A model generated the notes under the pieces. That model did no database searches and was not told the DNA's origin. It worked only from the letters and a program-made list of their open reading frames with translations. The position numbers and the translations under genes are program-made. This document shows positions 6,694 through 54,126 of a stretch of DNA of 64,000 nt, one piece after another (within the stretch, counting starts at the first letter, position 1; each line of letters opens with the position of its first letter). The stretch is from Clostridiales bacterium. Its GTDB lineage: Bacteria > Bacillota > Proteinivoracia > UBA4975 > PWLI01. The stretch spans positions 3,618 through 67,617 of the forward strand of contig PWLI01000011.1 in assembly GCA_003559415.1 (NCBI GenBank), written 5' to 3'.

Positions 6694-6696
6694 AGG

Positions 6697-10033: not shown

Positions 10034-10042
10034 CTGAACGCC

Positions 10043-10399: not shown

Positions 10400-10605
10400 G
10401 CAGGCTTGCGATTTTACTTATACGTGCCTATCAAAAGCTTATATCGCCCCTCAAGGGGCCGACGTGCCGGTTTTTGCCCACATGTTCTCAATATGCCCTG
10501 GAGGCGTTTTCCAAGTATGGATTTTGCAAAGGCGGTTACCTGGCGGTGAAAAGGGTGCTTTGTTGTCATCCCCTGCATCCCGGCGGGTACGACCCTTTGA
10601 TTTAA
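10396..10605 (+). CDS. yidD: Membrane protein insertion efficiency factor YidD
   Basis: 69 aa. ...[28 protein letters not shown]...R..RCHP...GGYDP. Confidence 0.9.
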
Positions 10606-10624
10606 TTACAAGGGGGATTTAAAG

Positions 10625-11326: not shown

Positions 11327-11943
11327 AAAAAAACGAAGTGGTTGCCAGCGGCAAAACAGTTGAAGAGGCAATAGAAAAAGCCCTGGAGGAGCTGAAAATC
11401 CCCAGGGAAGAAGCAGAAATTGACGTAGAAGAAATTCCCGCAAAAGGCATACTGGGAATAATGAGCAAAGAAGCAGTTGTCAGGGCAAGGCGGCTTTTTG
11501 ACCCTGCAACCTTTGCAGAAAAATGGCTTCAGGAGTTTTTGGACAAGGCCTCAATGTCAGGCAGAGTTCACACTCAAACAGAAGATGGCGCAGTTTTTGC
11601 GTTTATCTCCGGTGACAACGCGGGGCCGCTTATTGGCCGGCATGGCCAAACGCTGGAATCGTTGCAATACTTGCTGACACTAACTGTAAACAAGCATACT
11701 GATGCTTATGTGCCGGTTGTGCTGGACATAGGTGACTACCGGAAAAAGCGGAACAAGGCTGTGGAAGAAATGGCAAGACAAGCGGCGCAAAAAGTTTTGG
11801 AGACGGGGCAAGAAGTCACTCTTTCTGCCATGTCTCCCGCAGAGCGAAGGATAGTGCACCTGACGCTAAGCGAAAATGAAAAAGTGAAGACATACAGCAT
11901 AGGAGAAGAGCCGCGCCGTCAGGTTGTGGTGGAAAAAGCTTAG
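11323..11943 (+). CDS. khpB: Jag/KhpB RNA-binding protein (Jag_N-KH-R3H)
   Basis: 206 aa. N-terminal Jag domain (GKTVEEAIEKALEEL) and a C-terminal R3H domain (...RRIVHLTL...). Conserved position after yidC. Confidence 0.85.
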   Translation: MKKNEVVASGKTVEEAIEKALEELKIPREEAEIDVEEIPAKGILGIMSKEAVVRARRLFDPATFAEKWLQEFLDKASMSGRVHTQTEDGAVFAFISGDNAGPLIGRHGQTLESLQYLLTLTVNKHTDAYVPVVLDIGDYRKKRNKAVEEMARQAAQKVLETGQEVTLSAMSPAERRIVHLTLSENEKVKTYSIGEEPRRQVVVEKA

Positions 11944-11983
11944 ACAAAGACCGGCCGCAGGCCGGTCTTTGTAACAACAGGGG

Positions 11984-13360
11984 GTGGAGCCTGTGTACGC
12001 AGAAGATACCATAGCCGCGGCGGCAACGGCACCCGGCCCTGGCGGGGTAGGCATAGTCCGCGTCAGCGGAACCCGGGCCCGGGAAGCAACCCAGGCCCTT
12101 TTTGAGTTTTCTGCTCCCCCTGACAACGTTCAGCCACGGAAAATGTACTATGGTGCTTTTTCAGACCAGCAGGGCCGGGAAATTGATTCGGGGTTCTGGG
12201 TTTGGTTTAACCCGCCTGCCACATTTACCGGAGAAGAAGTGGTTGAGCTTCATTGTCATGGTGGCATGTTGATTATCCGCAGAATACTCCAGGCCCTTTA
12301 CGCACAGGGCGTTCGCCCCGCTGAGCGGGGAGAGTTTACCCGCCGGGCCTTTGTAAATGGCAAACTGGACCTTTCCCGGGCAGAGGCGGTGGCAGATTTA
12401 ATTGGAGCCCGCAGCGACAGGGCGCTGGACTTGGCCCGGGCCCAATATGAGGGCTCAATCGCCAACAAGACAGAACAGCTTCGCCAACAAATGACCCAGC
12501 TGCTGGCCAGCCTGGAGGTCACAATTGATTATCCAGAAATGGACCTGGATGAACAACAAAAGGAACGCCTTCTTCAGCAGGCGACACAAGTTGTCGAAGA
12601 ACTGAAGATGTTGGCAGCGACTTACAGCCGCGGGCGCTTGTATCGGGAAGGGCTGTCCACAGTAATACTGGGGCGCCCCAACGTGGGCAAGTCTTCGTTG
12701 CTGAACCTGCTTTCCGGAGAGGACAGGGCCATAGTCACCGACATCCCCGGCACCACCAGGGACGCCCTGGAAGTGGCTGTGAGCATCAGGGGCATACCCC
12801 TTACTTTGATTGACACTGCCGGCATCAGAAGCCCGGAAGGGCTGGTGGAGCAGCTTGGTGTGGACAAGGCCCGCCGCCTGGCGACAGCGGCAGACCTGGT
12901 AATAATTTTGTTTGACGGTTCGTTGCCCCTGTCGGAACAGGACATGGAGCTGTTAAAAATGTCTCCTCCGGCCAAGACACTGTGTGTGATAAACAAAAGC
13001 GATTTGCCCCAACAACTGGATGCAGAAACGTTGCGCAAACATGGGGCAGAAAGATGTTGCAGCATTTCAGTCCTCCGCCAGGAGGGTATAGAGCAGCTGG
13101 AAGAGGGAATTGAAAAAATGTTCGCCCTCTCAGAGGGATTTGACGGACAGGTTGTCATAACAAGCCAGCGGCATTTTGAAACACTGACCCGTGCTATTGC
13201 CCTGTTGGAAGAGGCGGTGGCGGGTTGGAGCACCCTTCCGCTGGACGTGTTGGCGCAACAGGTAAGAGAGGCGTGGCAAGCGCTGGGTGAGATAACCGGC
13301 AAGACGTACACGGAAGATCTTCTGGATGTAATATTTTCTCAGTTTTGCCTGGGCAAATAG
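11984..13360 (+). CDS. mnmE: tRNA modification GTPase MnmE
   Basis: 458 aa. DTIAAAATAPGPGGVGIVRVSG N-domain, G-domain GRPNVGKSSLLN...DIPGTTRD...DTAG, and C-terminal ...CLGK. Confidence 0.95.
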   Translation: MEPVYAEDTIAAAATAPGPGGVGIVRVSGTRAREATQALFEFSAPPDNVQPRKMYYGAFSDQQGREIDSGFWVWFNPPATFTGEEVVELHCHGGMLIIRRILQALYAQGVRPAERGEFTRRAFVNGKLDLSRAEAVADLIGARSDRALDLARAQYEGSIANKTEQLRQQMTQLLASLEVTIDYPEMDLDEQQKERLLQQATQVVEELKMLAATYSRGRLYREGLSTVILGRPNVGKSSLLNLLSGEDRAIVTDIPGTTRDALEVAVSIRGIPLTLIDTAGIRSPEGLVEQLGVDKARRLATAADLVIILFDGSLPLSEQDMELLKMSPPAKTLCVINKSDLPQQLDAETLRKHGAERCCSISVLRQEGIEQLEEGIEKMFALSEGFDGQVVITSQRHFETLTRAIALLEEAVAGWSTLPLDVLAQQVREAWQALGEITGKTYTEDLLDVIFSQFCLGK

Positions 13361-13371
13361 GGGGCGGGCTT

Positions 13372-15228
13372 ATGAAGGAGCAGCTTTATGATGTTATTGT
13401 CATAGGGGCAGGGCATGCCGGGTGTGAGGCGGCGCTGGCATCTGCAAGGATGGGCTGCAGCACACTGTTGCTGACCATGAGTTTGGACAACGTTGCCCTT
13501 ATGCCCTGCAATCCGGCTATTGGCGGCCCTGCCAAGGCCCACTTGGTGTTTGAGATAGATGCCTTGGGTGGAGAAATGGGCAGAAACATCAACCAGTCCA
13601 TGATTCAGGTTCGCATGCTTAACACCAACAAGGGCGCGGCGGTTCGCTCGCTGAGGGCCCAGGCCGACAAAGGTGCTTACCAGCGCCGCATGAAACGTGT
13701 GTTGGAGCAGCAACCGGGGCTTCATCTCAAACAGGCAGTGGTGGAGAAGTTGGACACAAGTCAAACCTCACCACATGTGGTGGAAACCAACCTGGGAACC
13801 CGTTACCGTGGACACAACATTGTGGTCACTTCCGGGACCTACATGAGCGCCAAAATTATAGTGGGTGATGTGGTCTGGCAGGGTGGACCCAATGCCATGA
13901 TGGGCCCTTCCGGACTGTCTCGGTGTCTAACTGATCTGGGGTTTGAGCAGGTGCGCTTCAAAACCGGAACACCTCCCCGGGTAGATGGCAAAACCCTGGA
14001 TTTTTTCCGCATGGAGCCCCAACCGGGGGACGACTGCAAACACAGCTTTTCTTTTTATTCTTCGCCGGTTTTGGACAAACAAGAGCTGTGCTGGCTGACT
14101 CACACCACCGAAGAAACACACAGCATTATCCGCGACAACTTGCACAGGGCTCCCTTGTATACCGGCATGATCCAGGGTGTGGGCCCACGCTACTGCCCTT
14201 CCATAGAGGACAAAGTTGTGCGGTTTGCCGACAAAAACAGGCACCAGCTGTTTTTGGAGCCGGAAGGGCGCTCAACCGATGAATACTATGTCCAGGGAAT
14301 GTCCACCAGCCTGCCGGAGGATGTCCAGGAGCAGTTTCTGCGCAGCATACCTGGAATGGAGAAAGTGGATATAATCCGGCCGGGATATGCAATAGAGTAC
14401 GATGTTGTGGTTCCCACACAGCTAAAACTTACCCTGGAAAGCAAGGCCTGCCCCGGGTTGTTTTTTGCCGGGCAAATCAATGGCACTTCCGGGTACGAAG
14501 AAGCTGCCGCCCAGGGCCTGATGGCGGGCATTAATGCCGCCCGGCGGGTACAGGGCAAACCGCCGGTGGTATTGCCCCGCTCCCAGGCATATATTGGAGT
14601 GCTGTTGGATGACTTGGTGGTCAAGGGACCGGAAGAGCCTTACCGCATGCTGACTTCCCGGGCAGAGTTCCGCCTGTTGCTTCGCCAGGACAATGCCGAC
14701 AAGCGGCTTTCGCCCCTGGGACATGAGTTGGGCTTGTTGCCGGAAGAAGACTTCCAAAGGTATAAAAACAAGCAAGGGGAAGTAGAAGGGCTTGTTTGCT
14801 GGGCGCACGGGCAAAAACTCAAACCAGAACAGGCGAACCAACACCTGGGTGACAGTACATGTCAGCAAGTTTCCGAAACTGTGCTGTTGGCAGACCTTTT
14901 GCGCCGCCCCGGCGTGAGCATGGAAAGTTTCCGTAAAATGTTTGACAAACAGTATGGCGCAACGGCGGTCCAGGCAGCCGAGACGGAAATCAAATACCAG
15001 GGATACATCGAAAAGCAGCAAAAACAGGTGGAACAGATGCAAAAAATGGAGGAAGTCAAGATACCGGAGCAACTTGATTTTTCCCACATTGCCGGCTTGT
15101 CCCGGGAAGGGCGGGATAAGCTCAGCGCCCACCGGCCCCAGACTCTGGGCCAGGCTTCCCGCATTCCCGGAGTCTCTCCCGCCGATGTGTCTTTGCTGTC
15201 CATACACATAAAGGCGGCGAGATCATGA
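13372..15228 (+). CDS. mnmG: tRNA uridine 5-carboxymethylaminomethyl modification enzyme MnmG/GidA
   Basis: MKEQLYDVIVIGAGHAGCEAALA is an FAD-binding Rossmann N-terminus. RBS AAATAGGGGG lies upstream of the ATG at 13372. The ORF-track start at 13345 would overlap the mnmE stop. Confidence 0.95.
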   Translation: MKEQLYDVIVIGAGHAGCEAALASARMGCSTLLLTMSLDNVALMPCNPAIGGPAKAHLVFEIDALGGEMGRNINQSMIQVRMLNTNKGAAVRSLRAQADKGAYQRRMKRVLEQQPGLHLKQAVVEKLDTSQTSPHVVETNLGTRYRGHNIVVTSGTYMSAKIIVGDVVWQGGPNAMMGPSGLSRCLTDLGFEQVRFKTGTPPRVDGKTLDFFRMEPQPGDDCKHSFSFYSSPVLDKQELCWLTHTTEETHSIIRDNLHRAPLYTGMIQGVGPRYCPSIEDKVVRFADKNRHQLFLEPEGRSTDEYYVQGMSTSLPEDVQEQFLRSIPGMEKVDIIRPGYAIEYDVVVPTQLKLTLESKACPGLFFAGQINGTSGYEEAAAQGLMAGINAARRVQGKPPVVLPRSQAYIGVLLDDLVVKGPEEPYRMLTSRAEFRLLLRQDNADKRLSPLGHELGLLPEEDFQRYKNKQGEVEGLVCWAHGQKLKPEQANQHLGDSTCQQVSETVLLADLLRRPGVSMESFRKMFDKQYGATAVQAAETEIKYQGYIEKQQKQVEQMQKMEEVKIPEQLDFSHIAGLSREGRDKLSAHRPQTLGQASRIPGVSPADVSLLSIHIKAARS

Positions 15229-39993: not shown

Positions 39994-42459
39994 ATGGACA
40001 ACTTGCAACTTGGCGACCAAGTAAAAACAAGCATCCGACAGTTGATTGCCGGGGCCGACGGCAACGAGCTGTTTTTTGTCGCCCAAGTGGAAGAAAGGCA
40101 AATAACATCAGCAGAAGTTGTTGCCCGGGGAAACAGCGTCAGCGTCCCGGCTGTGACCGAAAAACTCCGCCCTGGCATGTTGGTGTTGCACAATCATCCC
40201 AGCGGTGACCTGACGCCATCAGGCGCGGACATTACCCTGGCCAGCAGACTTGCCGCCGATGGGATTGGTTTTGCCATTACAGATAATGCAGCCAGTCAGC
40301 TGTATGTGGTGGTAGAACCTGATGGCGGCCGGGCAGCCAAGGCCGTTTCGCTGGTTGAGCTTGAAGAGGTGTTGTCTGCCGGCGGAAGCATCAGCCACCG
40401 CATGACGGGCTATGAGACCCGGCCCCAGCAGCTGGCAATGGCTGAACGGGTCAGCCATGTGTTGCACAACGGAGGACAGGGTGTTTTTGAGGCGGCCACC
40501 GGCACAGGGAAAAGCCTGGCCTACCTGGTGCCGGCGATTATCTGGGCGCTGGAAAATGACAAAAGAGTGGCGGTTTCCACCAACACCATTAATTTGCAGG
40601 AACAGTTGCTGCACAAAGATATTCCCTTGCTGGCAAGCGCCCTTTCCCGGCCCTTTAAAGCTGTGCTGGTAAAGGGAAGGGGCAACTATCTGTGTCGCCG
40701 CAAGTTGCGGGAAGTATGCCGCTCTGGTGAGGATTTGTTGGACGACGGCGACCTGGAACCGCTGCAAATGTTAATGAGCTGGGAAAAGGCAACCAGCGAC
40801 GGCAGCCTGTCAGACCTGGATTTTGCCCCCCGCTCCGAGCTGTGGGAATTGCTTTGCTCTGAAGGGGACACTTGCCTGCGCAGTGAATGCCCGATTTTCA
40901 GGGACTGCTTTTTCCACCGTGCGCGCCGGGAGGCTCTCAATGCCCAGTTGCTGGTGACCAATCATCATCTGCTCTTTGCAGACATATCCATGAGGGTTGC
41001 CGGCGGAGAGGCGGGAGTGCTGCCCCGGTACCATGCCGCGATAATTGATGAAGCCCATAACATTGAGCGGGTGGCAACAACCTGGTTTGGCGCCAGGGTT
41101 ACCCGTTTGGGCCTGCTCCGCCTGTTGGGCCGCTTGTATGGGCAGCGGGGAGCGAAGGCCAAGGGCCTGCTGTTGTTGATTGAACGAAAAATTGCTGCCA
41201 GTCAGCAGCTTTCTGAGCAAAAATCCCAGGACATAGTTTCCCGAATTCATCATGAGCTGGTTCCCCTTATCATAAATGCGGCAGCCGGTGTAAATGATTA
41301 CTTCACCCGTATGCAGGTCTATGCCGCCGATGGCCAGGATAAGAAAATCCGTTTGGACGGCAAGGATGGAGCATGGAAAGGACGGCTGGAAGAGGGCCGG
41401 GAAATGATACATCGCCTGGACTCGCTGGCCCATGGGCTGGAGGGGTTTGTCCGGCGCCTGGAACAGGCTTCTCCCGGGGGATTTGAAAACCTCTTGACCT
41501 CTGTTGTTGAGCTGATTTCGGTGTCCGGGCGCCTGCAGGGGCTGACGGACAGCCTCAGAGAGATATTCTTTGGCAATGACCAGCACGCCGTCCGCTGGCT
41601 GGAAGCATATAGCACCCGCCAGGGGCCGGCAGTAAGCTTCCATCAGGCGCCGCTTTCAGTTGACACGTTGCTGGCAGACAACATCTGGCGACGGATACCG
41701 GCAACGGTGCTTACCTCTGCCACGCTGTCGGTGGCCGGCGATTTTGGCTATCTGCGGCGGCAATTGGGCCTGTCGGAAAACATGCCGGTGGAGGAGGGAA
41801 TTTTCCCCTCCCCCTTCGACTACTCATCCCAGGTTATGGTGGGAGTGGCCACAGACATCCCCGAGCCGGAGCAGGGAGCTTATGCGAAAAAACTCGGCCC
41901 CGCCCTCCTGGCCTCTGTCCAGGCCACCAGGGGCAGGGCGCTTATACTGTTTACTTCCTATGCCATGCTGAAAAATGCCCACGGTTATTTGCGCAACAGC
42001 CTGGATGGGAAGGGCATCAGCCTGCTTTGCCAGGGCGAAGCGCCCAGAACCCAGTTGCTGGACAGGTTTCGCAAAGACACCGGCTCTGTGTTGCTGGCAA
42101 CCTCTTCCTTTTGGGAAGGCGTTGATGTGGTGGGGGAAAGTCTCAGCAGCTTGATTATAACCAGGCTGCCCTTTTCTGTGCCCGACGACCCGGTGATGGA
42201 GGCCAAGCTGGAGCGGCTGAGAGACCAGGGCCACAACCCCTTTTACGACTACCAGTTGCCCCAGGCAGTGCTCAGGTTCAAGCAGGGGTTTGGGCGGCTG
42301 ATCCGCAGCCGCAGTGACAGGGGGGTTGTACTGGTGCTGGACAGGCGGATCAGCACCCGGCGTTACGGGAAAATGTTTTTTGGCTCCCTGCCGGAATGCA
42401 CGGTTTTGGAAGATGAACTTTTGTCGATTTTGGACCTGCAGGGCAAGTTCATCGGCTGA
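39994..42459 (+). CDS. RadC-like JAB/MPN domain fused to a DinG/Rad3-family Fe-S ATP-dependent DNA helicase
   Basis: Residues 1-130 carry the JAMM motif LVLHNHPSGDLTPSGADITLASRL (HxHx7Sx2D) with RadC-like flanks. Then Walker A ATGTGKSLAYL, a four-Cys Fe-S insert (C...CLRSECPIFRDC), DEAH (IIDEAHNI), and C-terminal helicase motifs (LLATSSFWEGVDV, GRLIRSRSDRGVVLVLD). Confidence 0.8.
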   Translation: MDNLQLGDQVKTSIRQLIAGADGNELFFVAQVEERQITSAEVVARGNSVSVPAVTEKLRPGMLVLHNHPSGDLTPSGADITLASRLAADGIGFAITDNAASQLYVVVEPDGGRAAKAVSLVELEEVLSAGGSISHRMTGYETRPQQLAMAERVSHVLHNGGQGVFEAATGTGKSLAYLVPAIIWALENDKRVAVSTNTINLQEQLLHKDIPLLASALSRPFKAVLVKGRGNYLCRRKLREVCRSGEDLLDDGDLEPLQMLMSWEKATSDGSLSDLDFAPRSELWELLCSEGDTCLRSECPIFRDCFFHRARREALNAQLLVTNHHLLFADISMRVAGGEAGVLPRYHAAIIDEAHNIERVATTWFGARVTRLGLLRLLGRLYGQRGAKAKGLLLLIERKIAASQQLSEQKSQDIVSRIHHELVPLIINAAAGVNDYFTRMQVYAADGQDKKIRLDGKDGAWKGRLEEGREMIHRLDSLAHGLEGFVRRLEQASPGGFENLLTSVVELISVSGRLQGLTDSLREIFFGNDQHAVRWLEAYSTRQGPAVSFHQAPLSVDTLLADNIWRRIPATVLTSATLSVAGDFGYLRRQLGLSENMPVEEGIFPSPFDYSSQVMVGVATDIPEPEQGAYAKKLGPALLASVQATRGRALILFTSYAMLKNAHGYLRNSLDGKGISLLCQGEAPRTQLLDRFRKDTGSVLLATSSFWEGVDVVGESLSSLIITRLPFSVPDDPVMEAKLERLRDQGHNPFYDYQLPQAVLRFKQGFGRLIRSRSDRGVVLVLDRRISTRRYGKMFFGSLPECTVLEDELLSILDLQGKFIG

Positions 42460-42611
42460 CCGGTTCTTTGTTTAGCCTCTGTGTGCTATACTCGATATGG
42501 CTCCGTTTTTGCCGGACAGTCGGCAAGCAATCACAGCACAGGGCTGTTTTTATCGCCCATGATGCCCGATTATGAGCGGCAAGGCAAAATATTTTGCAAG
42601 GGGTTGGGCCG

Positions 42612-43973
42612 ATGAACAGCGACATAACCCACAATCTTTTGGAAGTGATTATCAGCCAAAGTGATCTGGCCATCCATGTGGTGGACAGGGATGGGGTTAC
42701 AACAATCTACAACAATGCCGCGGAAGCCATGGATGGCCTGTCCCGGCAAGATGTTTTGCACCGCCATATTCTCCAGGTGTTTCCGTCGCTGAACAGGGAC
42801 ACCAGCACCTTGCTTCGGGTGCTGGCCAGCGGCCAGCCAATCTACAACCAGCAGCAAACATACACAAACCTGCATGGCAAGAGCATTGCCACCGTCAACA
42901 CCACCCTGCCAATCACGGGACAGGACGGCGAAAGGGTGGGGGCGGTGGAAATGGCCAGGGACGTTTCCACCATCAAGGCGCTGTCCCAACAGGTTATCAA
43001 CTTGAGCCAGCGCCTGCAAAAACATTCTTCTGAGGCAAACGACCCCAGCTTTTACAGTTTTGATCAAATAGTTGGCAGGGATGCCCAGTTGCTGGCGGTG
43101 GTTGACAAAGCCCGCAAGGCTGCCAGAACATCCTCCCCTGTGCTCATAAGCGGCGAAACGGGTACGGGAAAGGAAATGATTGCCCAGTCAATCCACGGGT
43201 TCAGCCCCCGGGCTTCTCACCCCTTTGTTGCCCAAAACTGTGCAGCATTGCCGGAATCATTGCTGGAAGGGTTGCTTTTTGGCAGCGTCCGGGGGTCTTT
43301 TACCGGGGCCATGGACCGGCCGGGCCTGCTGGAGCTGGCCCACCAGGGGACGCTGCTTCTCGATGAAATTGGTTCTTTGCCCCCGGCGTTGCAGGCCAAA
43401 CTGTTAAGGGTGTTGGAACACGAGGAGGTAAGGCGCCTGGGCGACACCCGGGTAAGGAAGATAAGCTTCCGTTTGGTGGCGGCTACGGCGGCCGAACCAA
43501 GGGAGTGTTTGCGTCCCGATTTGTACTACCGGCTCAATGTAGTCAGCTTACACATGCCCCCGTTGCGGCAGCGGATAAGAGACATACCAATGCTTTGTGC
43601 TCACTTTCTCTCTCGCCAAAACCGGGAAATGGGCAACTCTATAACCGGAATCAGCCATGGGGCCATGGACATACTGCAAAGCTATCATTGGCCCGGCAAT
43701 GTCAGGGAGCTGGCAAACCTTTTGGAGAGCATTGGCAACTATCGGGAAAGCGGCAACATTGTTGCCACCGACCTTCCTGAGCACCTGCGGGCGGGAAGGG
43801 AAGAGTTTTCTTTGCGCAATGAACTGCAGCAACTGGAGAGAAAACACATCCTGGCAGCGATGGAGGCTGCCGGGAATAACATCTCCCGGGCGGCCCAATT
43901 GCTGAAACTGCCCCGCCAGACGCTGCAGCGGAAGTTGAAGGCCCTTGGTTGGCACACTAATTGCACAGAATAA
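42612..43973 (+). CDS. Sigma-54-dependent transcriptional activator (PAS - AAA+ - Fis-type HTH)
   Basis: PAS (HVVDRDGVTTIYNNAAEAMDGL), AAA+ with Walker A GETGTGKE and a GSFTGA variant of the GAFTGA loop, Walker B LLLDEIG, and a C-terminal HTH AAQLLKLPRQTLQRKLK. The ATG at 42612 has a better RBS than the TTG at 42594. Confidence 0.85.
   Translation: MNSDITHNLLEVIISQSDLAIHVVDRDGVTTIYNNAAEAMDGLSRQDVLHRHILQVFPSLNRDTSTLLRVLASGQPIYNQQQTYTNLHGKSIATVNTTLPITGQDGERVGAVEMARDVSTIKALSQQVINLSQRLQKHSSEANDPSFYSFDQIVGRDAQLLAVVDKARKAARTSSPVLISGETGTGKEMIAQSIHGFSPRASHPFVAQNCAALPESLLEGLLFGSVRGSFTGAMDRPGLLELAHQGTLLLDEIGSLPPALQAKLLRVLEHEEVRRLGDTRVRKISFRLVAATAAEPRECLRPDLYYRLNVVSLHMPPLRQRIRDIPMLCAHFLSRQNREMGNSITGISHGAMDILQSYHWPGNVRELANLLESIGNYRESGNIVATDLPEHLRAGREEFSLRNELQQLERKHILAAMEAAGNNISRAAQLLKLPRQTLQRKLKALGWHTNCTE
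43950..43965 (+). promoter_or_regulatory. Sigma-54 (-24/-12) promoter for the lysine-fermentation operon, embedded in the last codons of the activator gene
   Basis: TGGCAC-actaa-TTGCA is a perfect TGGCAC-N5-TTGCA. It ends 6 nt before the activator stop codon and lies about 35 nt upstream of the kdd start. Confidence 0.65.
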
Positions 43974-44000
43974 GGACAAAGGGAGTAGGGAGTGAGCAAC

Positions 44001-45047
44001 ATGAAAACCAAAGGTTGTGCATACGGCACACATCGCAGCATCGAGCCCCGGGGGTCGCTTCCCCAACCAGCATGGAAAATTGACAACACGCTGGACATTT
44101 GGAGCAATGAACTGTTGATAGATGTTGACACCCTCAACATTGATGCAGCCAGTTTCCGTCAGATTTCTGCTTCAGCCCAGGGCGATGAAGGTGAAATCGC
44201 CAATATAATAATGAAAACCGTTTCTGAACGGGGCAAGCAACACAACCCGGTGACGGGTTCCGGGGGCATGCTTGTAGGCCGGGTGGCAAAAGTCGGGAAA
44301 GACTGGCCCAACAATGTTGAACCAGACAGCCGCATGGCCACCCTTGTTTCCCTGTCTTTGACCCCCCTGGTCATTGAAGAAGTGCTTGCAGTGCGCCCCG
44401 ATACCTGTCAGGTAGACGTGCGGGGCAAGGCTGTTTTGTTTGAAAGCGGCATATATGCCCTGTTGCCCCAGGACATGCCGGAAAAAATGGCGCTGGCTGT
44501 GTTGGATGTTGCCGGTGCCCCCGCCCAAACTGCCCGCCTGGCCCGTTCCGGTCAGACGGTGGTTGTTATTGGAGCCGGCGGAAAGTCTGGGTTGCTCTGT
44601 CTCTTCCAGGCCCGGCAAAAGGCAGGGGATCAGGGCCGGGTGCTGGCCCTGGAGTTTTCCCAGGCAGGCGTGGAGCGAATTGAGGAAACGGGTTATGCCG
44701 ATGAGATCATTGTCGCTGATGCCACCAACCCCACAGATGTTTTGGACAAGGTAAGTGCCGTCACAGATGGAGCACTGGCAGACCTGACCATAAACTGTGT
44801 GGACATCCCGGGAACGGAGATGTCGTCAATTCTTTCCACCAAGAATGGAGGGACCGTCTATTTTTTCAGCATGGCCACCAGCTTTACTGCCGCGGCGCTG
44901 GGTGCAGAAGGAGTAGGCAAGGACGTGACCATGATAATTGGCAATGGCTACACTCGGGGACATGCTGATATGGCCCTGGAATGCATGCGCCAGCAACCCC
45001 GGTTGAAAGAGATTTTTTCCCGGGCTTACGTTGAAAAGGAGGACTAG
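44001..45047 (+). CDS. kdd: L-erythro-3,5-diaminohexanoate dehydrogenase
   Basis: MKTKGCAYGTHRSIEPRGSLPQPAWKIDN... is the conserved Kdd N-terminus, followed by a Rossmann VVVIGAGGKSG. About 350 aa. RBS TAGGGAG. The ORF track uses a GTG at 43992. Confidence 0.8.
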   Translation: MKTKGCAYGTHRSIEPRGSLPQPAWKIDNTLDIWSNELLIDVDTLNIDAASFRQISASAQGDEGEIANIIMKTVSERGKQHNPVTGSGGMLVGRVAKVGKDWPNNVEPDSRMATLVSLSLTPLVIEEVLAVRPDTCQVDVRGKAVLFESGIYALLPQDMPEKMALAVLDVAGAPAQTARLARSGQTVVVIGAGGKSGLLCLFQARQKAGDQGRVLALEFSQAGVERIEETGYADEIIVADATNPTDVLDKVSAVTDGALADLTINCVDIPGTEMSSILSTKNGGTVYFFSMATSFTAAALGAEGVGKDVTMIIGNGYTRGHADMALECMRQQPRLKEIFSRAYVEKED

Positions 45048-45049
45048 CC

Positions 45050-46288
45050 TTGGCTGATTACAAAGACATACCCCTGTTTGAATCGGTGACAAAGGAACAG
45101 TGGCAAGACTGGCATTGGCAACTGCAAAACCGCATAAGCGATGTTGCCACGCTCAAAAAGGTAATCAACCTTACCAGCCAGGAAGAAGAGGGGATTGAGC
45201 GCTGTTTGCAGTCGTTGAGAATGGCCGTTACCCCTTACTATGCCAGCCTGATGGATAGGGACGACCCCAACTGCCCCATAAGGCGGCAGGCTGTTCCTGT
45301 CAGCAATGAGTTGAACATGTCTGCTACCGATATGGACGATCCCTTGGCAGAGGATACCGACTCGCCGGTGCCCGGCCTGACCCACCGATACCCCGACAGG
45401 GTGCTGTTGCTGGTAACTGACCAGTGTTCCATGTATTGCCGCCACTGCACACGCAGAAGGATGGCGGGAGCCACCGACAAAGCCCTGCCGGGAGAGCAGG
45501 TGGATGGAGCGATAGAATATATCCGCCGCACCCCGGCCATAAGGGATGTGCTGATTTCCGGTGGCGACGGGTTGCTTATTTCAGATGCTCACCTGGAAAA
45601 AATAATCCAGAAGCTGCGCAGCATCCCCCATGTTGATGTTATTCGCATTGGCACCCGGGTGCCGGTGGTGATGCCCCAGCGCATTACCCGGGAACTGGTA
45701 ACGATGTTGCAACGCTACCACCCTGTTTGGCTGAACACCCACTTTAACCATCCCCGGGAGGTTACCCCTGAAGCCTGTAAGGCGTTGGAAATGCTGGCCA
45801 ATGCGGGCATACCCCTGGGCAACCAGTCGGTGCTGTTGCGGGGTGTAAATGACTGCGTCGGCGTGATGAAGGCGCTGGTGCACAAGCTGGTGCAAAACCG
45901 GGTGCGCCCATACTACATTTACCAGTGTGACCTCTCCCGGGGGATAGAGCATTTTCGCACACCAGTGGCCAAGGGGATTGAAATTATTGAAGGCCTGCGG
46001 GGCCACACTTCTGGCTATGCAGTGCCCACCTATGTCGTAGATGCCCCCGGCGGAGGGGGCAAAATACCGGTGATGCCCCAATACCTGATCTCTCATTCTC
46101 CCCAGAGGGTAGTGTTGCGTAACTTTGAGGGCGTCATAGCGGCTTACACCCAGCCCTCAGAATACAGCGACCCGGATTGCAGTCAGTGTGAATATTGTCA
46201 GCAATCAATTGGTGTCAGCAGTGTTTTGCAAGGCAGTCGGCCCAGCCTTGAACCGGAGGGTTTGGACCGGCAGAGACGCCGCAAATGA
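45050..46288 (+). CDS. kamA: L-lysine 2,3-aminomutase (radical SAM)
   Basis: CSMYCRHCTRRR is the CxxxCxxC cluster. PLP-binding and the C-terminal Zn-Cys motif CSQCEYC match the KamA architecture. Confidence 0.9.
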   Translation: MADYKDIPLFESVTKEQWQDWHWQLQNRISDVATLKKVINLTSQEEEGIERCLQSLRMAVTPYYASLMDRDDPNCPIRRQAVPVSNELNMSATDMDDPLAEDTDSPVPGLTHRYPDRVLLLVTDQCSMYCRHCTRRRMAGATDKALPGEQVDGAIEYIRRTPAIRDVLISGGDGLLISDAHLEKIIQKLRSIPHVDVIRIGTRVPVVMPQRITRELVTMLQRYHPVWLNTHFNHPREVTPEACKALEMLANAGIPLGNQSVLLRGVNDCVGVMKALVHKLVQNRVRPYYIYQCDLSRGIEHFRTPVAKGIEIIEGLRGHTSGYAVPTYVVDAPGGGGKIPVMPQYLISHSPQRVVLRNFEGVIAAYTQPSEYSDPDCSQCEYCQQSIGVSSVLQGSRPSLEPEGLDRQRRRK

Positions 46289-47307
46289 ACAAGTTGCTCA
46301 AGCAGGCTGTAGAGGGAGGCAGTCTGGCAGTAGTGGGCATGGCCAAAAATGCCGGCAAAACTGTGACAATAAACTATCTGTTGGCACAGGCTGCCATCCA
46401 TGGAATCCGTACGGGACTGACCTCCACCGGCCTGGATGGTGAAACAACGGACTCCCTTTACCTGCTGCCCAAACCGGAAATAACGCTGTCTGCCGGATCC
46501 CTGCTGGCCACGGCCCGGGGCAGCCTTTCCCAGGGGTCGGCTCGCCTGGAATTGTTGCGAGGCACAAGGCTGGTAAACCCTTTGGGTGAAATAGTGATTG
46601 CCCGGGTTAGACGGGAAGGAACGGTGGAAGTAAGCGGCCCGGAAACATGCAGCGACCTGGCAAAAGTTATATCCCTGATGTCCGGAGAAGTCGACTTGGT
46701 GTTGGTGGATGGCGCCCTGGACAGGGTGGCGGCATCTGCTCCTTCAGTCACTGGTGGCGCAGTGCTGGCTACCGGTGCAGTGGTGGCTGGCAACGTGGAA
46801 GGCGTGGTGCGGGAAACTGTTTACCAGGCAAGGTTGCTGATGCTTCCCCCTTGCCGCAGTTTAAACGTGGACGAAAAAAATCTCATTGAGCAGGGCGGCA
46901 TCGCTGTTTCCAGCGCTGACGGCCTTGAAATCCTTCCATTGGAGACAGCAGTTGACGGCCCCCTGGAGATACTGGACTACCTGACGCCCCAGTGTAAACT
47001 GTTGTTGGGCGGCGCATTTACAGATGAACTGGCCCAGTTGCTGTTGGGGGCCTCCCGGCGCCTGGGAGAACTGTCAGTGGTGGTGAGGGATGGAACCAGG
47101 GTTTTTGTCGGCTCCCGTCTCTGGCAGCAGTTGGAACGGTCCAGTGTGGATGTGTTGGTTATGGAGGCGATAAATCTGATGGCGGTGGTTGTCAACCCTG
47201 TTGATGTTCGCGGCAGACAGCTTCCGGGGGACAAGCTGATTTCGATTCTTTCTCAACTTCTGCCGGGGGTGTCCGTGTTCAACCCTCTGGCTACAGGGGG
47301 TGACTGA
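46285..47307 (+). CDS. P-loop NTPase of unknown function encoded between kamA and kamDE
   Basis: Walker A VVGMAKNAGKTVT, a hydrophobic-strand-then-Asp LVLVDGALD, and Gly/Ala-rich core strands. No confidently recognisable family. Confidence 0.55.
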   Translation: MNKLLKQAVEGGSLAVVGMAKNAGKTVTINYLLAQAAIHGIRTGLTSTGLDGETTDSLYLLPKPEITLSAGSLLATARGSLSQGSARLELLRGTRLVNPLGEIVIARVRREGTVEVSGPETCSDLAKVISLMSGEVDLVLVDGALDRVAASAPSVTGGAVLATGAVVAGNVEGVVRETVYQARLLMLPPCRSLNVDEKNLIEQGGIAVSSADGLEILPLETAVDGPLEILDYLTPQCKLLLGGAFTDELAQLLLGASRRLGELSVVVRDGTRVFVGSRLWQQLERSSVDVLVMEAINLMAVVVNPVDVRGRQLPGDKLISILSQLLPGVSVFNPLATGGD

Positions 47308-48955
47308 AATAGAAAGGTTTATTGGCAAACCATGCCAACAGCAAATTGGACTTGAATGGGTGCTGGAGCACTTGACCCCCTTAAGTTGCTACGGCCGCCT
47401 GCGGCAGGAGAGAATGCCGGTTTATTTGCCTGGGTGTGAGCACCAACTGACCAGGGAGTGGGAGCGGATTGGCAGCCTGCTGGACGTCTGGCAATCTTAT
47501 CCCGAAAAGGTCCAGGCTGTTGAGGCGGAAATACATGGCCTCAGGGACATACGCGGTATAGTTCGCAAGGCCTGTGCTCATCTGACCCTGGAAGAACATG
47601 AGCTCTTTGACCTTAAGCAATGGTTGCAGCAGGTTGACCGCCTTTCTCAGACCCTTGTTACTTTGCCTTCTTTTTTGCCCCGACGTTTTTCGCTGTACTG
47701 CTGCCCCCGTTTGTTGGCATCCTTGAGCATGGAGGGTGACAGCGGATTCTATCTGGCAGACTGCTATGACCCCAAACTTGCCAGCCTGCGGCAATTGCAG
47801 CGGCAAAAGTTTTCTGTGCTGTCGGAAATAAAAGAAAAGCGGCAGGCTTGCATTACCCGGGAAACGGGCCTGGAGTTCAATTACCAGGGCTGTCTCCGGG
47901 TGGGCAAACATCAAACAGAATTACTGGACAAGTTGCATAATCGCAGCGACCTTCTGACAGTTGCAGAAACATATACTGAAGTGGAATTTACCCTGCGTAA
48001 AACTGCAGAAATGTTGGAGCTGTCCCGCCAGATAGCGGATCTTGAACAGGAAATCCAACAGCAGGAATATATAATCCGTCAGGTGTTGACAGAGCAAGTT
48101 GCCCGGCACAGCCGTTGGCTGCTGGCGTCGTGCAATCGTATCGGTGCCATTGATTTGCTCTTTGCCAAGGGGCGCCTGGCCCGGGAACTGGGCGGTTGCG
48201 TGCCCACCCTTGTTTCTGAAAACAAGTTGCAGATTTCAGCACTGGTTCACCCCCTTGTTGAAAACCAGCTTGCCAGCCAGGGATTGGTGTTCCAGCCATT
48301 GGACATTAATGTTGTTGGCAAAAGAGTTACCCTGATTACCGGGGCCAACATGGGCGGCAAGTCGGTGGCCCTCAAATCAATTGGGTTGGCGGTGGCCATG
48401 GCCCAAAGGGGCTTGTTGGTCCCTGCCCGCCGGATGGAGTTTTCGTTGCGCAGCTTTGTGTATTACTCTCAACAGGAAGAAAACCCGCGGCAGGGCCTCA
48501 GCACCTTCGGCGCAGAAATACACAGCCTCGCCCAGATGTTGCCCCGCCACCACCAGCCCGGCTTGTACCTGCTGGATGAGCCCGCCAGGGGCACCAACCC
48601 CCATGAGGGAGCAGGATTGGTGGCAGGGATAATTAACTGGCTGGTCTCGGGAAACAGCCTGGCAATTATCGCCACCCACCTGTCCGGCCTGACTGAGGGT
48701 GCAGCTGTGGATCACCTGCAGGTTGCCGGGTTGAGCAATGTTGAACCGGATCAGTTAAACCAGGCCCTGGCCGGGGGGAGAAAGTCTTTGCAACAGCTGA
48801 TGGACTACACCCTGGTCCCCTCTGGCGGGGATGTTCCCCGGGATGCTCTCAAGGTGGCTGCTTTTTTGGGGCTGGACCGGGAGATAATAAACTATGCACA
48901 TCGTAAATTGGGATTACCAGCTCAGGAGGTGGTTGACGATGAAATTGAATCTTGA
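47300..48955 (+). CDS. MutS-domain-V-like ATPase (MutS paralog without a mismatch-binding domain) in the kam cluster
   Basis: The C-terminal half has the MutS ABC-ATPase motifs ITGANMGGKSVALKSIG, ...STFGAEIHSLAQML..., LYLLDEPARGTNPHEG, and ATHL. The N-terminal half is helical and not MutS I-IV-like. Confidence 0.7.
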   Translation: MTEIERFIGKPCQQQIGLEWVLEHLTPLSCYGRLRQERMPVYLPGCEHQLTREWERIGSLLDVWQSYPEKVQAVEAEIHGLRDIRGIVRKACAHLTLEEHELFDLKQWLQQVDRLSQTLVTLPSFLPRRFSLYCCPRLLASLSMEGDSGFYLADCYDPKLASLRQLQRQKFSVLSEIKEKRQACITRETGLEFNYQGCLRVGKHQTELLDKLHNRSDLLTVAETYTEVEFTLRKTAEMLELSRQIADLEQEIQQQEYIIRQVLTEQVARHSRWLLASCNRIGAIDLLFAKGRLARELGGCVPTLVSENKLQISALVHPLVENQLASQGLVFQPLDINVVGKRVTLITGANMGGKSVALKSIGLAVAMAQRGLLVPARRMEFSLRSFVYYSQQEENPRQGLSTFGAEIHSLAQMLPRHHQPGLYLLDEPARGTNPHEGAGLVAGIINWLVSGNSLAIIATHLSGLTEGAAVDHLQVAGLSNVEPDQLNQALAGGRKSLQQLMDYTLVPSGGDVPRDALKVAAFLGLDREIINYAHRKLGLPAQEVVDDEIES

Positions 48956-50513
48956 TCAGGCAGTGATCAACCGCTGCCGCCAGGCCGCCGGTCACATCGC
49001 GGGCGATGTTGACCAATTTATCCGGCAAAGAACGACGGTATCTTTGGAACGTGCGGTGTTGAGGCTTATGGGCATAAACGATGCCATGGATGACGTTCCG
49101 GTGGCCAACCTTTTTGTTGAGACCATCCAGGCCGGGCAGGGCCTGGGCAGGGGGGCGGCCTATTGGTTGGCCAATGGCTGTTACCAGCTAAAACTCACTG
49201 CTGACGAAGTGGCCCAAAGAGTTGTATCGGGACAACTGGATTTGTTTCAATTGCCCCAGGCTGACCGGGCCACCCTCAATCCAACGCTGGAAAAGCTGAT
49301 GCAGCCCACAATTGAAAAAATTAAAGATCAACACCGGTTCAGAAAAGACAAACTGTCAAATCTTGGCATGGGCCCTGAGCCCTTGCTGTACGTGATTGTC
49401 GCCACCGGCGATATCTACCAGGATGTGGACCAGGCAGTGGCGGCAGTGGCCCAGGGGGCCGACATCGTGGCTGTTATCCGGACAACGGGGCAGAGCCTGT
49501 TGGACTATGTGCCCCATGGCTCCACGCGGGAAGGTTTTGGCGGTACATACGCTACCCAGGAAAACTTTCGCATCATGAGGGAAGCGCTGGATGAGGCAGG
49601 GGACAAAGCCGGCCGCTATGTGATGCTGGTCAATTACAGCTCCGGCTTGTGCATGCCGGAAATAGCTGTCCTGGGCGCCTTGGAGCGGCTGGATATGATG
49701 TTGAACGATGCCCTGTACGGAATTCTTTTCCGGGACATAAATATGCAGCGCACCTTGATTGACCAACATTTCTCCCGGCAGATAATCGGATTTGCCGGAG
49801 CGATAATCAACACCGGTGAAGACAACTACCTGACAACTGCCGATGCTGTGGAAGAAGCCCATACCGTGACGGCTTCCCAGTTCATAAATGAACAACTGGC
49901 GCTGTTGGCAGGCCTGGAAGACAGGCAAATCGGTTTGGGCCACGCCTTTGAGATAGACCCGTCCATGACTGACGGCTTGTTGTTGGAAATTGCCCAGGCA
50001 CAAATGGCCCGTCAGCTTTTCCCCCGGGCACCGTTGAAATACATGCCGCCTACAAAGCACATGACTGGTGATATTTTCCAGGGACATTTGCAAAACGGCC
50101 TGTTCAACCTGACATCGGTGCTCACCGGACAGGGAGTGCACCTGTTGGGCATGGTGACCGAGGCAATCCACACACCCTATGTTCAGGACCGCTTGCTGGC
50201 ATTGCAAAATGCCCGTTATGTCATGAACAACGCCCGCAACCTGGGAGAGGAATTGTCCATACGGGATGACGGCAAAATTTCCGCCCGGGCCCGAGACGTG
50301 CTGGAGAAGGCCGCCCAGATGCTGGAAACAGTTGCTGAAATAGGTTTGTTTGCAGCCCTGGAGAGGGGCATGTTTGCAGACATTGAGCGTTCCCGTGACG
50401 GGGGCAAGGGTTTGGATGGTGTGGTGATGAAGGATGTTGATTACTGCAATCCTTTCCAGGAGCTATTGACACAACAGGCTGGAAGTTCAGGAGGTGGCAA
50501 TGATGAGAAGTAA
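48939..50513 (+). CDS. kamD: Lysine 5,6-aminomutase alpha subunit (PLP/TIM-barrel subunit)
   Basis: MKLNLDQAVINRCRQAAGHIAGDV... About 520 aa. RBS CAGGAGGTGG. The ORF-track start at 48894 lies inside the previous gene. Confidence 0.85.
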   Translation: MKLNLDQAVINRCRQAAGHIAGDVDQFIRQRTTVSLERAVLRLMGINDAMDDVPVANLFVETIQAGQGLGRGAAYWLANGCYQLKLTADEVAQRVVSGQLDLFQLPQADRATLNPTLEKLMQPTIEKIKDQHRFRKDKLSNLGMGPEPLLYVIVATGDIYQDVDQAVAAVAQGADIVAVIRTTGQSLLDYVPHGSTREGFGGTYATQENFRIMREALDEAGDKAGRYVMLVNYSSGLCMPEIAVLGALERLDMMLNDALYGILFRDINMQRTLIDQHFSRQIIGFAGAIINTGEDNYLTTADAVEEAHTVTASQFINEQLALLAGLEDRQIGLGHAFEIDPSMTDGLLLEIAQAQMARQLFPRAPLKYMPPTKHMTGDIFQGHLQNGLFNLTSVLTGQGVHLLGMVTEAIHTPYVQDRLLALQNARYVMNNARNLGEELSIRDDGKISARARDVLEKAAQMLETVAEIGLFAALERGMFADIERSRDGGKGLDGVVMKDVDYCNPFQELLTQQAGSSGGGNDEK

Positions 50514-51243
50514 TTTTGTCAAGGCATACGGCGACGCCCTCAATGATGGAGCTGTCCAGCTGTCTTTTACCCTGCCGTTGTCACCGGGCGGGATGGCCAA
50601 AGAAGCGGCCCGGCACCTGGCAGAGAAAATGGGCTTGGACCAACCGGAAGTGGTACACATGGTCGAGGCCGGCACCGGATTCAGCTTCTTCATCGTTTAC
50701 GGCTTCTGTCGCCACCAGGTAGACACCAGTCAACTTCAGGCGACAGAGGTTGAGATCCAGGAAATGAGCTTCAATGAAATAAACCAGTATATACAGGAAA
50801 GAATAGGTCGCAGGCTAAATGTGGTGGCAGCATGCACCGGCACGGATGCTCACACCGTGGGCATTGATGCGATTATGAACATGAAGGGCTACAAGGGCGA
50901 GTACGGCCTGGAGCGCTACTCCTGGATCAACGCCTGGAACATGGGCAGCCAGGTGCCCAATACCCGGCTGGTTGCTGAAGCAAAAAAAACACAGGCCGAT
51001 GCCCTGTTGGTTTCCCAGGTGGTAACCCAACGGGATGTGCACATATCCAACCTGTCCCAGCTCACCGAGTTGTTGGAGGCGGAAGGTATGCGTCAGAATG
51101 TGTTGCTGATTGTTGGCGGGCCGCGGATCAGCCACCAGCTGGCTCTGGAATTGGGATATGATGCAGGCTTTGGGCCGGGGACAACCCCTCGTCAGGTGGC
51201 CAGCTATATAGCCCGGGAGATATATCGCCGACAACAGGGATGA
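50500..51243 (+). CDS. kamE: Lysine 5,6-aminomutase beta subunit (B12-binding)
   Basis: Cobalamin DxHxxG motif in GTDAHTVGIDAIM within a Rossmann B12-binding domain. The PLP-Lys region lies N-terminal. Confidence 0.85.
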   Translation: MMRSNFVKAYGDALNDGAVQLSFTLPLSPGGMAKEAARHLAEKMGLDQPEVVHMVEAGTGFSFFIVYGFCRHQVDTSQLQATEVEIQEMSFNEINQYIQERIGRRLNVVAACTGTDAHTVGIDAIMNMKGYKGEYGLERYSWINAWNMGSQVPNTRLVAEAKKTQADALLVSQVVTQRDVHISNLSQLTELLEAEGMRQNVLLIVGGPRISHQLALELGYDAGFGPGTTPRQVASYIAREIYRRQQG

Positions 51244-51306: not shown

Positions 51307-52917
<1,611 letters not shown>

Positions 52918-52918: not shown

Positions 52919-53305
52919 ATGGAAGAGAAAGTGGTGTTGAGGCTGCGCATCAGCGCTGCTGACGTGCATTATGGAAGCGGGCTGGTGGCTGGAGCAAAAA
53001 TCGCCAGCTTGTTTGGCGATGCTGCAACAGCCTTGCTGATAAAACACGATGGCGATGAGGGACTTTTTGTCGCCTACCAGTCCCTGGAGTTCAAGGCGCC
53101 TGTCTATGCCGGGGACTTTTTGGAAGTCCAGGCATCGATAGAGAAAACCGGCAACAGTTCCCGAACCATTTCCTTTGAAGCCTGGAAAATTATAGCGGCC
53201 AATCCACAAAAGGGCCCTTCAGCGGCAGACTGGCTTGATGAGCGCCAGCTTGTGGCAACAGCCCGGGGCACATGTGTGGTACCCAAGGAGAGGCAAAGGA
53301 GGTAA
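52919..53305 (+). CDS. kal: 3-aminobutyryl-CoA ammonia-lyase (hot-dog fold)
   Basis: 128 aa. Size, hot-dog-like sequence and adjacency to kce match Kal of the lysine fermentation pathway. Confidence 0.7.
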   Translation: MEEKVVLRLRISAADVHYGSGLVAGAKIASLFGDAATALLIKHDGDEGLFVAYQSLEFKAPVYAGDFLEVQASIEKTGNSSRTISFEAWKIIAANPQKGPSAADWLDERQLVATARGTCVVPKERQRR

Positions 53306-53307
53306 GC

Positions 53308-54126
53308 ATGGAAAAGTTAATAATAACGGCAGCCCTTACCGGAGCTGAACTCAGCCGCCAGGAAAATCCCAACTTGCCCATATCGCCGGAGGAAATCGCC
53401 GGGGAAGCAAAGCGGTGCTGGGATGCGGGAGCCAGTATTATTCACATTCATGCCCGCCAACCTGATGGAACCCCCACCCAGGACAAAGAGATATACCGGG
53501 AGATTATTCAGGCCATCCAGCAAAGAAGCGACGCCATTGTTCAGGTCTCCACCGGCGGTGCTGTTGGCATGAGCCCGGAAGAGAGGGTGCAACCGGTCAC
53601 CCTTGCCCCTGAGATGGCCACCCTGACCACCGGAAGCGTTAACTTCGGCCAGGGGGTTTTTCATAACCCCCCGGAGATGATCAGGCATTTTGCCCGGAAG
53701 ATGATAGATTGCGGGGTAAAGCCGGAAATAGAGGTTTTCGACAGCGGCATGATTGCCAACGCCCTGTCATTAGTCAAGGAAGGCTTGTTGTCTCATCCCC
53801 TGCACTTTGATTTTGTGTTGGGTGTGCCGGGCGGCATGCCGGGAACACCGGAAAACCTGATGTTTTTGCGCCACCTGCTGCCCCCCGATGCCACCTGGAC
53901 GATGGCGGGCATAGGCAGGGCAGAGCTGCCCCTGGCAGTGATGGCCCTGGTCCTTGGCGGCCATGTGCGTGTGGGGTTTGAAGACAACATCTATTACAGC
54001 AAAGGAGTGCTGGCCCAGAGCAATGCTCAACTGGTGGAGAGAGTTGTCCGTATTGCCGGTGAACTGAATCGTCCTGTTGCCACGCCCTCTGAGGCGCGGG
54101 AAATATTAAGCATGGGGAGGTCTTGA
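53308..54126 (+). CDS. kce: 3-keto-5-aminohexanoate cleavage enzyme (DUF849/BKACE)
   Basis: MEKLIITAALTGAELSRQENPNLPISPEEIAGEA...IIHIHAR is a TIM-barrel BKACE signature. RBS AGGAGG. Confidence 0.8.
   Translation: MEKLIITAALTGAELSRQENPNLPISPEEIAGEAKRCWDAGASIIHIHARQPDGTPTQDKEIYREIIQAIQQRSDAIVQVSTGGAVGMSPEERVQPVTLAPEMATLTTGSVNFGQGVFHNPPEMIRHFARKMIDCGVKPEIEVFDSGMIANALSLVKEGLLSHPLHFDFVLGVPGGMPGTPENLMFLRHLLPPDATWTMAGIGRAELPLAVMALVLGGHVRVGFEDNIYYSKGVLAQSNAQLVERVVRIAGELNRPVATPSEAREILSMGRS

Follow-up and report, generated by a model that had tools for sequence, protein, structure and literature searches.

The 64,000-nucleotide stretch analysed here, hereafter the window, spans positions 3,618 to 67,617 of contig PWLI01000011.1 (Clostridiales bacterium, assembly GCA_003559415.1) and carries an anaerobic lysine-fermentation operon, kdd-kamABCDE, directly downstream of the gene for a sigma-54 activator. 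Very probably, this operon has a working sigma-54 promoter within the last codons of its activator, and that promoter acts by the mechanism described below. The same bases serve as a 16-bp promoter and as five codons, and a comparison of 12 loci and 34 protein clusters indicates that the DNA signal, and not the peptide, is what has been selected. An earlier note on this DNA had proposed such an arrangement: the presence of TGGCAC-N5-TTGCA at 43950-43965, within the last activator codons, is confirmed by the sequence and the reading frame, and its role as the kdd-kam promoter finds strong support in its conservation across the lineage. The features at this junction are as follows.

42612-43973, + strand: sigma-54 activator (enhancer-binding protein), recognised by its Pfam domains, 453 residues from ATG 42612.
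43293-43310, + strand: codons of the GSFTGA loop (sigma-54 contact motif, a GAFTGA variant), read from the sequence.
43950-43965, + strand: predicted sigma-54 promoter, with the -24 element TGGCAC at 43950-43955, the spacer ACTAA and the -12 element TTGCA at 43961-43965.
43975-43977, + strand: predicted transcription start, from the standard sigma-54 geometry of 11-13 nt past the C of the -12 GC.
43988-43992, + strand: ribosome-binding site (RBS) GGGAG of kdd, read from the sequence, with GGAGG-like sites equivalently placed in orthologous loci.
44001-45047, + strand: kdd, L-erythro-3,5-diaminohexanoate dehydrogenase, first gene of the operon (NF052381, 247 bits against a cut-off of 200).

The plus-strand sequence TGGCAC-ACTAA-TTGCA (TGGCACACTAATTGCA) has no mismatch to TGGCACN5TTGCW and is the sole exact match in the window, and its GG and GC dinucleotides are spaced by the 10 nt that a sigma-54 -24/-12 promoter requires. 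It is in frame with the activator, being read as TGG CAC ACT AAT TGC (W-H-T-N-C), followed by ACA GAA TAA (T-E-stop), with the stop codon at 43971-43973. An exact match in the window is not rare by chance, as dinucleotide-preserving shuffles of the window (n=100) gave a mean of 0.28 matches and at least one match in 27 of the 100. The match alone proves little; its weight comes from its position, its strand and its conservation. A second sigma-54 promoter was sought before the activator gene and before kal-kce, two lysine genes further downstream, and rejected, the best candidates being matches with 2 mismatches, which occur in the window at the chance rate (56 found against 59 expected).

The C of the -12 element lies 37 nt from the ATG of kdd, the first gene after the activator and also on the + strand. 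Transcription is predicted to start 2-4 nt past the activator stop, which would leave kdd a leader of ~25 nt. The activator stop is separated by 27 nt from the kdd ATG and by ~14 nt from the RBS at 43988-43992, a distance that had been given as 18 nt in the earlier note. The start of kdd is likely ATG 44001 rather than GTG 43992, given the position of the RBS, the orthologues and the fit of the NCBIfam KDD model.

Conservation was followed in protein and in DNA. A search with the activator protein returned a tight group of 34 clusters (P0001-P0034, 50-100% identity), followed by a step in score down to RocR-like activators. Exact-protein look-up then supplied the DNA of 11 further members of this in-group, giving 12 in-group loci including the window, and of one outgroup locus, L021. 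All 34 nearest clusters end in W-(H or Y)-X1-X2-C-X3, with His in 33 and Tyr in 1, an ending found in none of 86 further homologues. The three free positions vary as DNA would, not as protein: X1 is always E, D, K, N, G, T, A or S, with purine-initial codons (AGY for Ser); X2 is always N, T, I or S, with ANT codons in the 12 DNA loci and, by inference, in the other 22 clusters; and X3 is always N, I, K, Y, T, S or stop, all A/T-initial. Together the tail residues spell TGG-CAY-RNN-ANT-TGC-W, which is the sigma-54 consensus TGGCAY-R-N4-TTGCW. Within the element, the 12 in-group loci are composed as follows.

Codon at the His position: CAC in 4, CAT in 7, TAC in 1.
Cys codon: TGC in 12/12.
Base before the Cys codon (wobble): T in 12/12.
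Base after the Cys codon: A in 11, T in 1.

With TGC making up 52% of the Cys codons in the same genes, its use in all 12 loci has a probability of ~4e-4, and the invariant wobble T before Cys has one of ~1e-5, given the amino acids present. In the codon alignment, the synonymous codons of the neighbouring invariant P-R-Q-T-L-Q-R-K-L vary freely, while the six-codon stretch over the promoter has a third-position entropy of 0.38 bits against a mean of 1.39, the minimum of the gene. The TGGTAC variant of locus L020 matches the -24 form TTGGTACGTATTTTGCA that is active in Bacillus thuringiensis (PMC4428206).

The W-H-x-x-C ending might instead be a protein motif, such as a His/Cys pair that senses metal or redox state, its likeness to a promoter being incidental. 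Its amino acids are invariant across the 34 clusters, His and Cys are typical ligand residues, and a short helix is modelled at residues 447-452. Such an explanation is nevertheless hardly credible, as synonymous sites are frozen just where a promoter needs them (TGC, the wobble T and the following A/T, each in 12/12), X1 takes only residues whose codons begin with a purine and X2 only those with ANT codons, and in the outgroup this element lies outside coding DNA. Moreover, the spacing is fixed to kdd and not to the stop codon, and the tail after Cys ranges from 0 to 12 residues. In the AlphaFold model of the activator (mean predicted local distance difference test score, pLDDT, 87.8), the helix-turn-helix (HTH) helices occupy residues 424-431 and 435-444, the latter being the recognition helix and the last one, and the tail comprises residues 447-453, with the short helix and a confidence down to ~50 at the extreme end. 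The HTH_8 Pfam match stops 3 residues short of the tail Trp. As modelled, the tail would be an appendage outside the DNA-binding fold, where arbitrary sequence is tolerable. The W-H-x-x-C-(N/I/K/Y...) tail thus appears to be a by-product of the DNA signal and not a protein motif, selection on the promoter bases having fixed the residues that follow the DNA-binding helix.

In 12/12 in-group loci, the kdd start follows the -12 GC at a fixed 33-40 nt, with the activator stop falling anywhere from 3 to 39 nt past the GC. The gene order activator, kdd, kamA, kamB, kamC, kamD is common to all 11 other in-group loci and the outgroup. In two loci the activator frame reaches kdd itself: in L008 the activator stop overlaps the kdd ATG (ATGA, 6389-6392), and that of L018 borders directly on the kdd start (6390-6395), so that in both the predicted sigma-54 start site and the kdd RBS fall inside the activator reading frame. 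Translational coupling on read-through transcripts is possible in these loci.

The nearest outgroup, Anaerobranca californiensis (protein P0035, locus L021), shares with the window the gene order, the promoter sequence class and two TGCCC-N6-GGGCA palindromes near the activator start, but differs in the placement of the promoter. Its activator ends in ...QYKLKQFKLK-stop, without W-H-x-x-C and 5-7 residues earlier than in the in-group. The stop codon is followed by a 7-bp hairpin and U7 (-9.9 kcal/mol, z -2.9), and only past this terminator-like hairpin, in a 96-bp spacer and 44 nt before kdd, lies the non-coding promoter TTGGCACTAAATTTGCA; in the window, by contrast, the promoter is inside the activator codons. 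Judging from these sequences, Anaerobranca appears to keep the ancestral order of stop codon, terminator hairpin, promoter and kdd. In the simplest history, spacer and terminator would have been lost in the in-group, and the activator frame would have run on across the promoter.

The activator-kdd junction of the window shows no stable fold (z +1.15) and no terminator-like site, which makes it plausible, as the earlier note had supposed, that activator transcripts run on into kdd. An Rfam search of the activator leader and the junction gave nothing credible. In a rival reading, the element would bind sigma-54 polymerase but act mainly on the activator gene itself, as a roadblock or attenuator of activator transcripts, or it would be a relic, with the operon expressed mainly by read-through. 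Besides the missing terminator, the overlapping or abutting stop and start codons of L008 and L018 suggest co-transcription and translational coupling, and many intragenic sigma-54 sites of Escherichia coli have no known promoter role (PMC4591121). We consider a roadblock or relic improbable, however, as a perfect -24/-12 element is maintained at synonymous sites, together with the 33-40 nt spacing, across relatives that are 50-80% identical. Furthermore, in the outgroup the hairpin ahead of the promoter would leave that promoter as the main way into kdd, and a neighbouring activator whose sigma-54 contact loop is intact implies the existence of a promoter for it to act on.

The longest open reading frame (ORF) of the activator starts at TTG 42594; the version from ATG 42612 is identical to the database protein P0001, of 453 residues. 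Pfam assigns to it a PAS domain (2.7e-10), Sigma54_activat (PF00158, 7.9e-56, ORF residues 159-319), AAA_lid_14 and HTH_8 (1.3e-12), and its PDB relatives include NifA, ZraR, FleQ and NtrC1. It thus has the AAA+ domain, contact loop, N-terminal sensor and Fis-type HTH of a bacterial enhancer-binding protein of the NtrC/NifA family. The earlier note had drawn attention to GSFTGA in place of the canonical GAFTGA. The variant is indeed present, but it is not unusual, being the majority form of the activator subfamily (76/120 closest homologues) and listed as a functional variant among Clostridiales activators (PMC6615313). Named activator equivalogs (PrdR, NifA, NorR, AtoC and others) were tried, and all matches fell under the NCBIfam cut-offs, the best being PrdR with 350.6 bits against 795. 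Many of the homologues are named 'arginine utilization regulatory protein' by database sources.

In the proposed mechanism, sigma-54 RNA polymerase would sit as a closed complex on TGGCAC-N5-TTGCA (43950-43965). The activator, of the PAS-AAA+-HTH architecture of RocR and KamR, would presumably use its PAS domain to sense lysine or an intermediate of the pathway and, bound at two TGCCC-N6-GGGCA palindromes that flank its start codon, would act on the complex by DNA looping, which is the weakest step. ATP hydrolysis by the activator would open the complex, and transcription would begin ~2-4 nt past the activator stop, the ~25-nt leader holding the kdd RBS. Activator transcripts would enter kdd too, supplying a basal level beneath the sigma-54 induction.

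With regard to the binding sites, the earlier note had expected them 80-150 bp upstream of the promoter (~43800-43880), an expectation that found no conserved support in the 400 bp upstream of the promoter. Across 13 loci, this region contains no conserved perfect 6-nt inverted repeat and no conserved NifA-type TGT-N10-12-ACA, and the third-position entropy shows no dip in synonymous variation there. Apart from the promoter, the only DNA-constrained stretch of the activator gene is formed by PAS codons 99-105, where synonymous variation is second-lowest. In most loci they read CTG CCC RTT TTT GGG CAG, which contains the palindrome TGCCC-N6-GGGCA, and the AT-rich outgroup (36% G+C) still has CTG, GGG and CAG at this place. 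The same palindrome recurs just before the gene, and the two candidate sites of the window are as follows.

42563-42578, no strand assigned: candidate enhancer site a, TGCCCGATTATGAGCG, TGCCC-N6-GGGCA with 2 mismatches in the window.
42907-42922, no strand assigned: candidate enhancer site b, TGCCAATCACGGGACA, with 2 mismatches, in the PAS codons for L-P-I-T-G-Q.

Site a, allowing for 1 mismatch, is present in 10/11 other in-group loci ~50 nt ahead of the activator start, and in the outgroup ~30 nt ahead of it; in relatives it is sometimes a perfect 16-bp palindrome, and L011 and L020 have perfect TGCCC-N6-GGGCA sites. Site b, inside the gene ~290 nt past the activator start and 1043 bp upstream of the -24 element, has at most 1 mismatch in 10 other in-group loci and the outgroup, so that each site is this well preserved in 11/13 loci. 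Both are degenerate in the window; in L006, site b is degenerate and site a perfect. From this conservation, the activator most probably binds at the two palindromes, which are the best enhancer candidates.

The activator might alternatively bind in the 3' part of its gene, at the palindrome GGCAACATTGTTGCC (43752-43766), leaving the far palindromes to serve something else. This palindrome lies 198 bp upstream of the promoter, within the 100-250 bp usual for enhancers in Clostridiales activator systems (PMC6615313); the window has it without mismatch and L006 with 1. Both loci also carry another GGCAA-N5-TTGCC, at 42876-42890 of the window, the pair having gene positions +264 and +1140; in addition, site b is degenerate in these two loci and site a, of the two, in the window only. 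We hold this placement to be rather unlikely, however, since GGCAA-N5-TTGCC is limited to the window and L006 and is missing from the 10 other in-group loci and the outgroup, with a recognition helix, PRQTLQRKL, that is identical throughout. The window and L006 are 79% identical, and the shared coding sequence may be common ancestry; moreover, third-position entropy reveals no constraint at the site. The GGCAA-N5-TTGCC palindromes can also be read as GG-N10-GC sigma-54-like sites on either strand.

In a more far-reaching reading, the promoter would have turned into the last codons of the activator once spacer and terminator were gone, and would since have dictated the tail across the lineage; with the TGCCC-N6-GGGCA palindromes as binding sites at the other end of the gene, ~1.05-1.4 kb away, the enhancer-promoter loop would enclose the whole gene. 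Read-through transcripts of the activator could in turn be subject to feedback from a sigma-54 closed complex sitting stably at the end of its gene. This extension of the proposed mechanism is possible, though it is offered tentatively and we would rather doubt it than not.

Several points weigh against a sigma-54 promoter that works as proposed. The base before TGG is other than the usual T in 9/12 loci. The 12 loci form one syntenic lineage of uncultured Bacillota and are related, not independent, samples, and the conservation argument depends on the synonymous sites elsewhere in the activator gene being saturated. The in-group consists of uncultured metagenome bins, in which sigma-54 dependence is predicted from sequence, and the RpoN box is absent from every frame of the 64-kb window, to which the check for rpoN/sigL was confined. 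As for the candidate palindromes, both are degenerate in the window (2 mismatches each), they lie ~1.05 and ~1.4 kb upstream of the promoter against the typical 100-250 bp, and they could instead serve autoregulation of the activator or another protein.

The closest described counterpart is the KamR/kamA system of B. thuringiensis HD73, whose kamA promoter TTGGCATAACTATTGCT is sigma-54- and KamR-dependent, with the -12 element 38 nt from the start codon (Zhang et al. 2014, as summarised in PMC4428206). In that species, validated sigma-54 promoters lie 32-55 nt from the start, and TTGGTAC works as a -24 variant (PMC4428206). In both systems, a PAS-containing sigma-54 activator is encoded directly upstream of a lysine 2,3-aminomutase cluster and co-oriented with it, and the spacing from promoter to start codon is nearly the same (38 nt, and 37 nt in the window). 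In the window, however, the first target is kdd, the full anaerobic set kdd-kamABCDE follows, and the promoter is inside the activator frame. The likeness to KamR is one of architecture and gene context, the best NCBIfam match of the activator being PrdR, below its cut-off. RocR of Bacillus subtilis, which acts with SigL, is activated by ornithine, an amino acid of its pathway (PMC10404663). It shares with the window's activator the architecture of PAS, AAA+ and Fis-type HTH; its promoters are intergenic, unlike the one proposed here, and serve another target pathway, and the enhancer of the window is a candidate drawn from conservation only. The RocR enhancer reported by Belitsky and Sonenshein (1999) acts over a long range, from downstream of rocG, at a distance of ~1.5 kb, and offers a precedent for the long distance of the candidate palindromes.

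Intragenic sigma-54 promoters are known from E. coli and Salmonella, those of nagB->nagE, yqeC->yqeB and rlmD->relA giving leaders of 360-760 nt (PMC4591121), and from Myxococcus, among the targets of Nla28 and Nla6 (PMC9765219); some are conserved between species. As in these systems, the element of the window lies in sense orientation inside the upstream gene, from where it is predicted to drive kdd. The predicted leader, however, is ~25 nt and not 360-760 nt, and the promoters described in those papers are not reported there to lie in the gene of their own activator, whereas the present one occupies the activator's last codons.

Sigma-54/KamR control of kamA (PMC4428206) and intragenic sigma-54 promoters (PMC4591121, PMC9765219) are therefore already established. 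What is new is a promoter in the last codons of its own activator, with a short leader and with one frame kept throughout the lineage, which yields a diagnostic tail and allows the selected layer to be recognised from the codons. A search of open-access papers found no description of a promoter in the codons of its own activator. Conserved C-terminal 'motifs' can be shadows of regulatory DNA, and the kdd-kam promoter would escape a search of intergenic regions only, which is how most published sigma-54 regulons were reconstructed. The arrangement would also extend the sigma-54 control of lysine catabolism from kamA of B. thuringiensis to a complete anaerobic lysine-fermentation operon in uncultured Bacillota. 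If the promoter works as proposed, a synonymous change of TGC to TGT should abolish induction without any change in the protein. The in-group lineage recurs in metagenome assemblies.

The leader of the activator gene holds further elements, two of which can be placed in the window.

42484-42492, + strand: possible extended -10 (TGcTATACT) of the activator's own housekeeping-sigma promoter, read from the sequence.
42533-42552 (region 42521-42557), + strand: terminator-like hairpin and T run in the activator leader, a weak counterpart of the conserved hairpin.

The -10 has counterparts at the equivalent place in relatives, the same GTGTGCTATACT in L006 and TGnTATAAT in L008 and L018; it is without a good -35 element, and a consensus promoter scan did not call it at 42484-42492. 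The conserved leader hairpin, AAGCAACC-N4-GGTTGCTT followed by TTTT, stands ~60-90 nt before the activator start in L007-L020 and at 5930-5965 in L021, with -10.3 kcal/mol and z -3.8 in L011. Compensatory changes are found in its stem, from A-T to G-C in L012 and L020 and, in the outgroup, from C-G to G-C. As L008 and L018 have the hairpin too, although the gene upstream of it is divergent there, it is not merely the terminator of the arginase-family gene that precedes the activator in relatives; it could be an attenuator of the activator. A perfect palindrome, GCAAAAT/ATTTTGC, is located at 42584-42597, directly before the activator RBS, with the counterpart GCAAAAA/TTTTTGC in L006; the other loci retain only GCAAAA...GC. 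It may be an operator or part of a leader structure.

Downstream of kdd, the operon continues with five further genes, kamA to kamE, and kal and kce lie beyond it.

45050-46288, + strand: kamA, lysine 2,3-aminomutase (TIGR03820, 627 against 525 bits; Pfam LAM_C, Radical_SAM).
46285-47307, + strand: kamB, lysine 5,6-aminomutase reactivase subunit (NF052386, 299 against 210 bits).
47300-48955, + strand: kamC, reactivase ATPase, MutS-like (NF052383, 439 against 300 bits).
48894-50513, + strand: kamD, lysine 5,6-aminomutase alpha subunit (NF052384, 830 against 600 bits).
50494-51243, + strand: kamE, lysine 5,6-aminomutase beta subunit, B12-binding (NF052385, 379 against 280 bits).
52919-53305: kal (NF052388, 161 bits against a cut-off of 160).
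53272-54126: kce, downstream of kal.

The set of the 3,5-diaminohexanoate pathway, kdd and kamA-E, is complete, with 6/6 genes past their NCBIfam equivalog cut-offs. The true start of kamD is probably ATG 48939, and the NF052384 model begins at residue 17 of the ORF. A housekeeping gene, pyrG (51307-52917), interrupts the lysine genes: it follows kdd-kamABCDE and precedes kal and kce, after which come fba, tal and glpX. In the window there is no sigma-54 motif ahead of kal-kce and no T-run terminator past kamE, so that the sigma-54 transcript may read through pyrG, or kal-kce may ride on the pyrG promoter.

Directly upstream of the activator, 39994-42459 encodes an 821-residue DinG-type helicase with an N-terminal RadC-like JAB domain, a fusion that is syntenic in all related loci. 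Upstream synteny is largely kept in the relatives and comprises the DinG-like helicase, a penicillin-binding protein and polyamine genes. The latter two stand between the helicase and the activator in most relatives, though not in the window or L006, the inserted polyamine genes being a PvlArgDC-family arginine decarboxylase, a spermidine-synthase-family gene and an arginase-family gene. At the other end of the window, 963-15228 holds a chromosomal origin block, in which gyrA, gyrB, recF, dnaN and dnaA (8203-9528) on the minus strand face rnpA, yidC, mnmE and mnmG on the plus strand. The lysine operon lies ~34 kb from this block, in the same orientation as its plus-strand genes.

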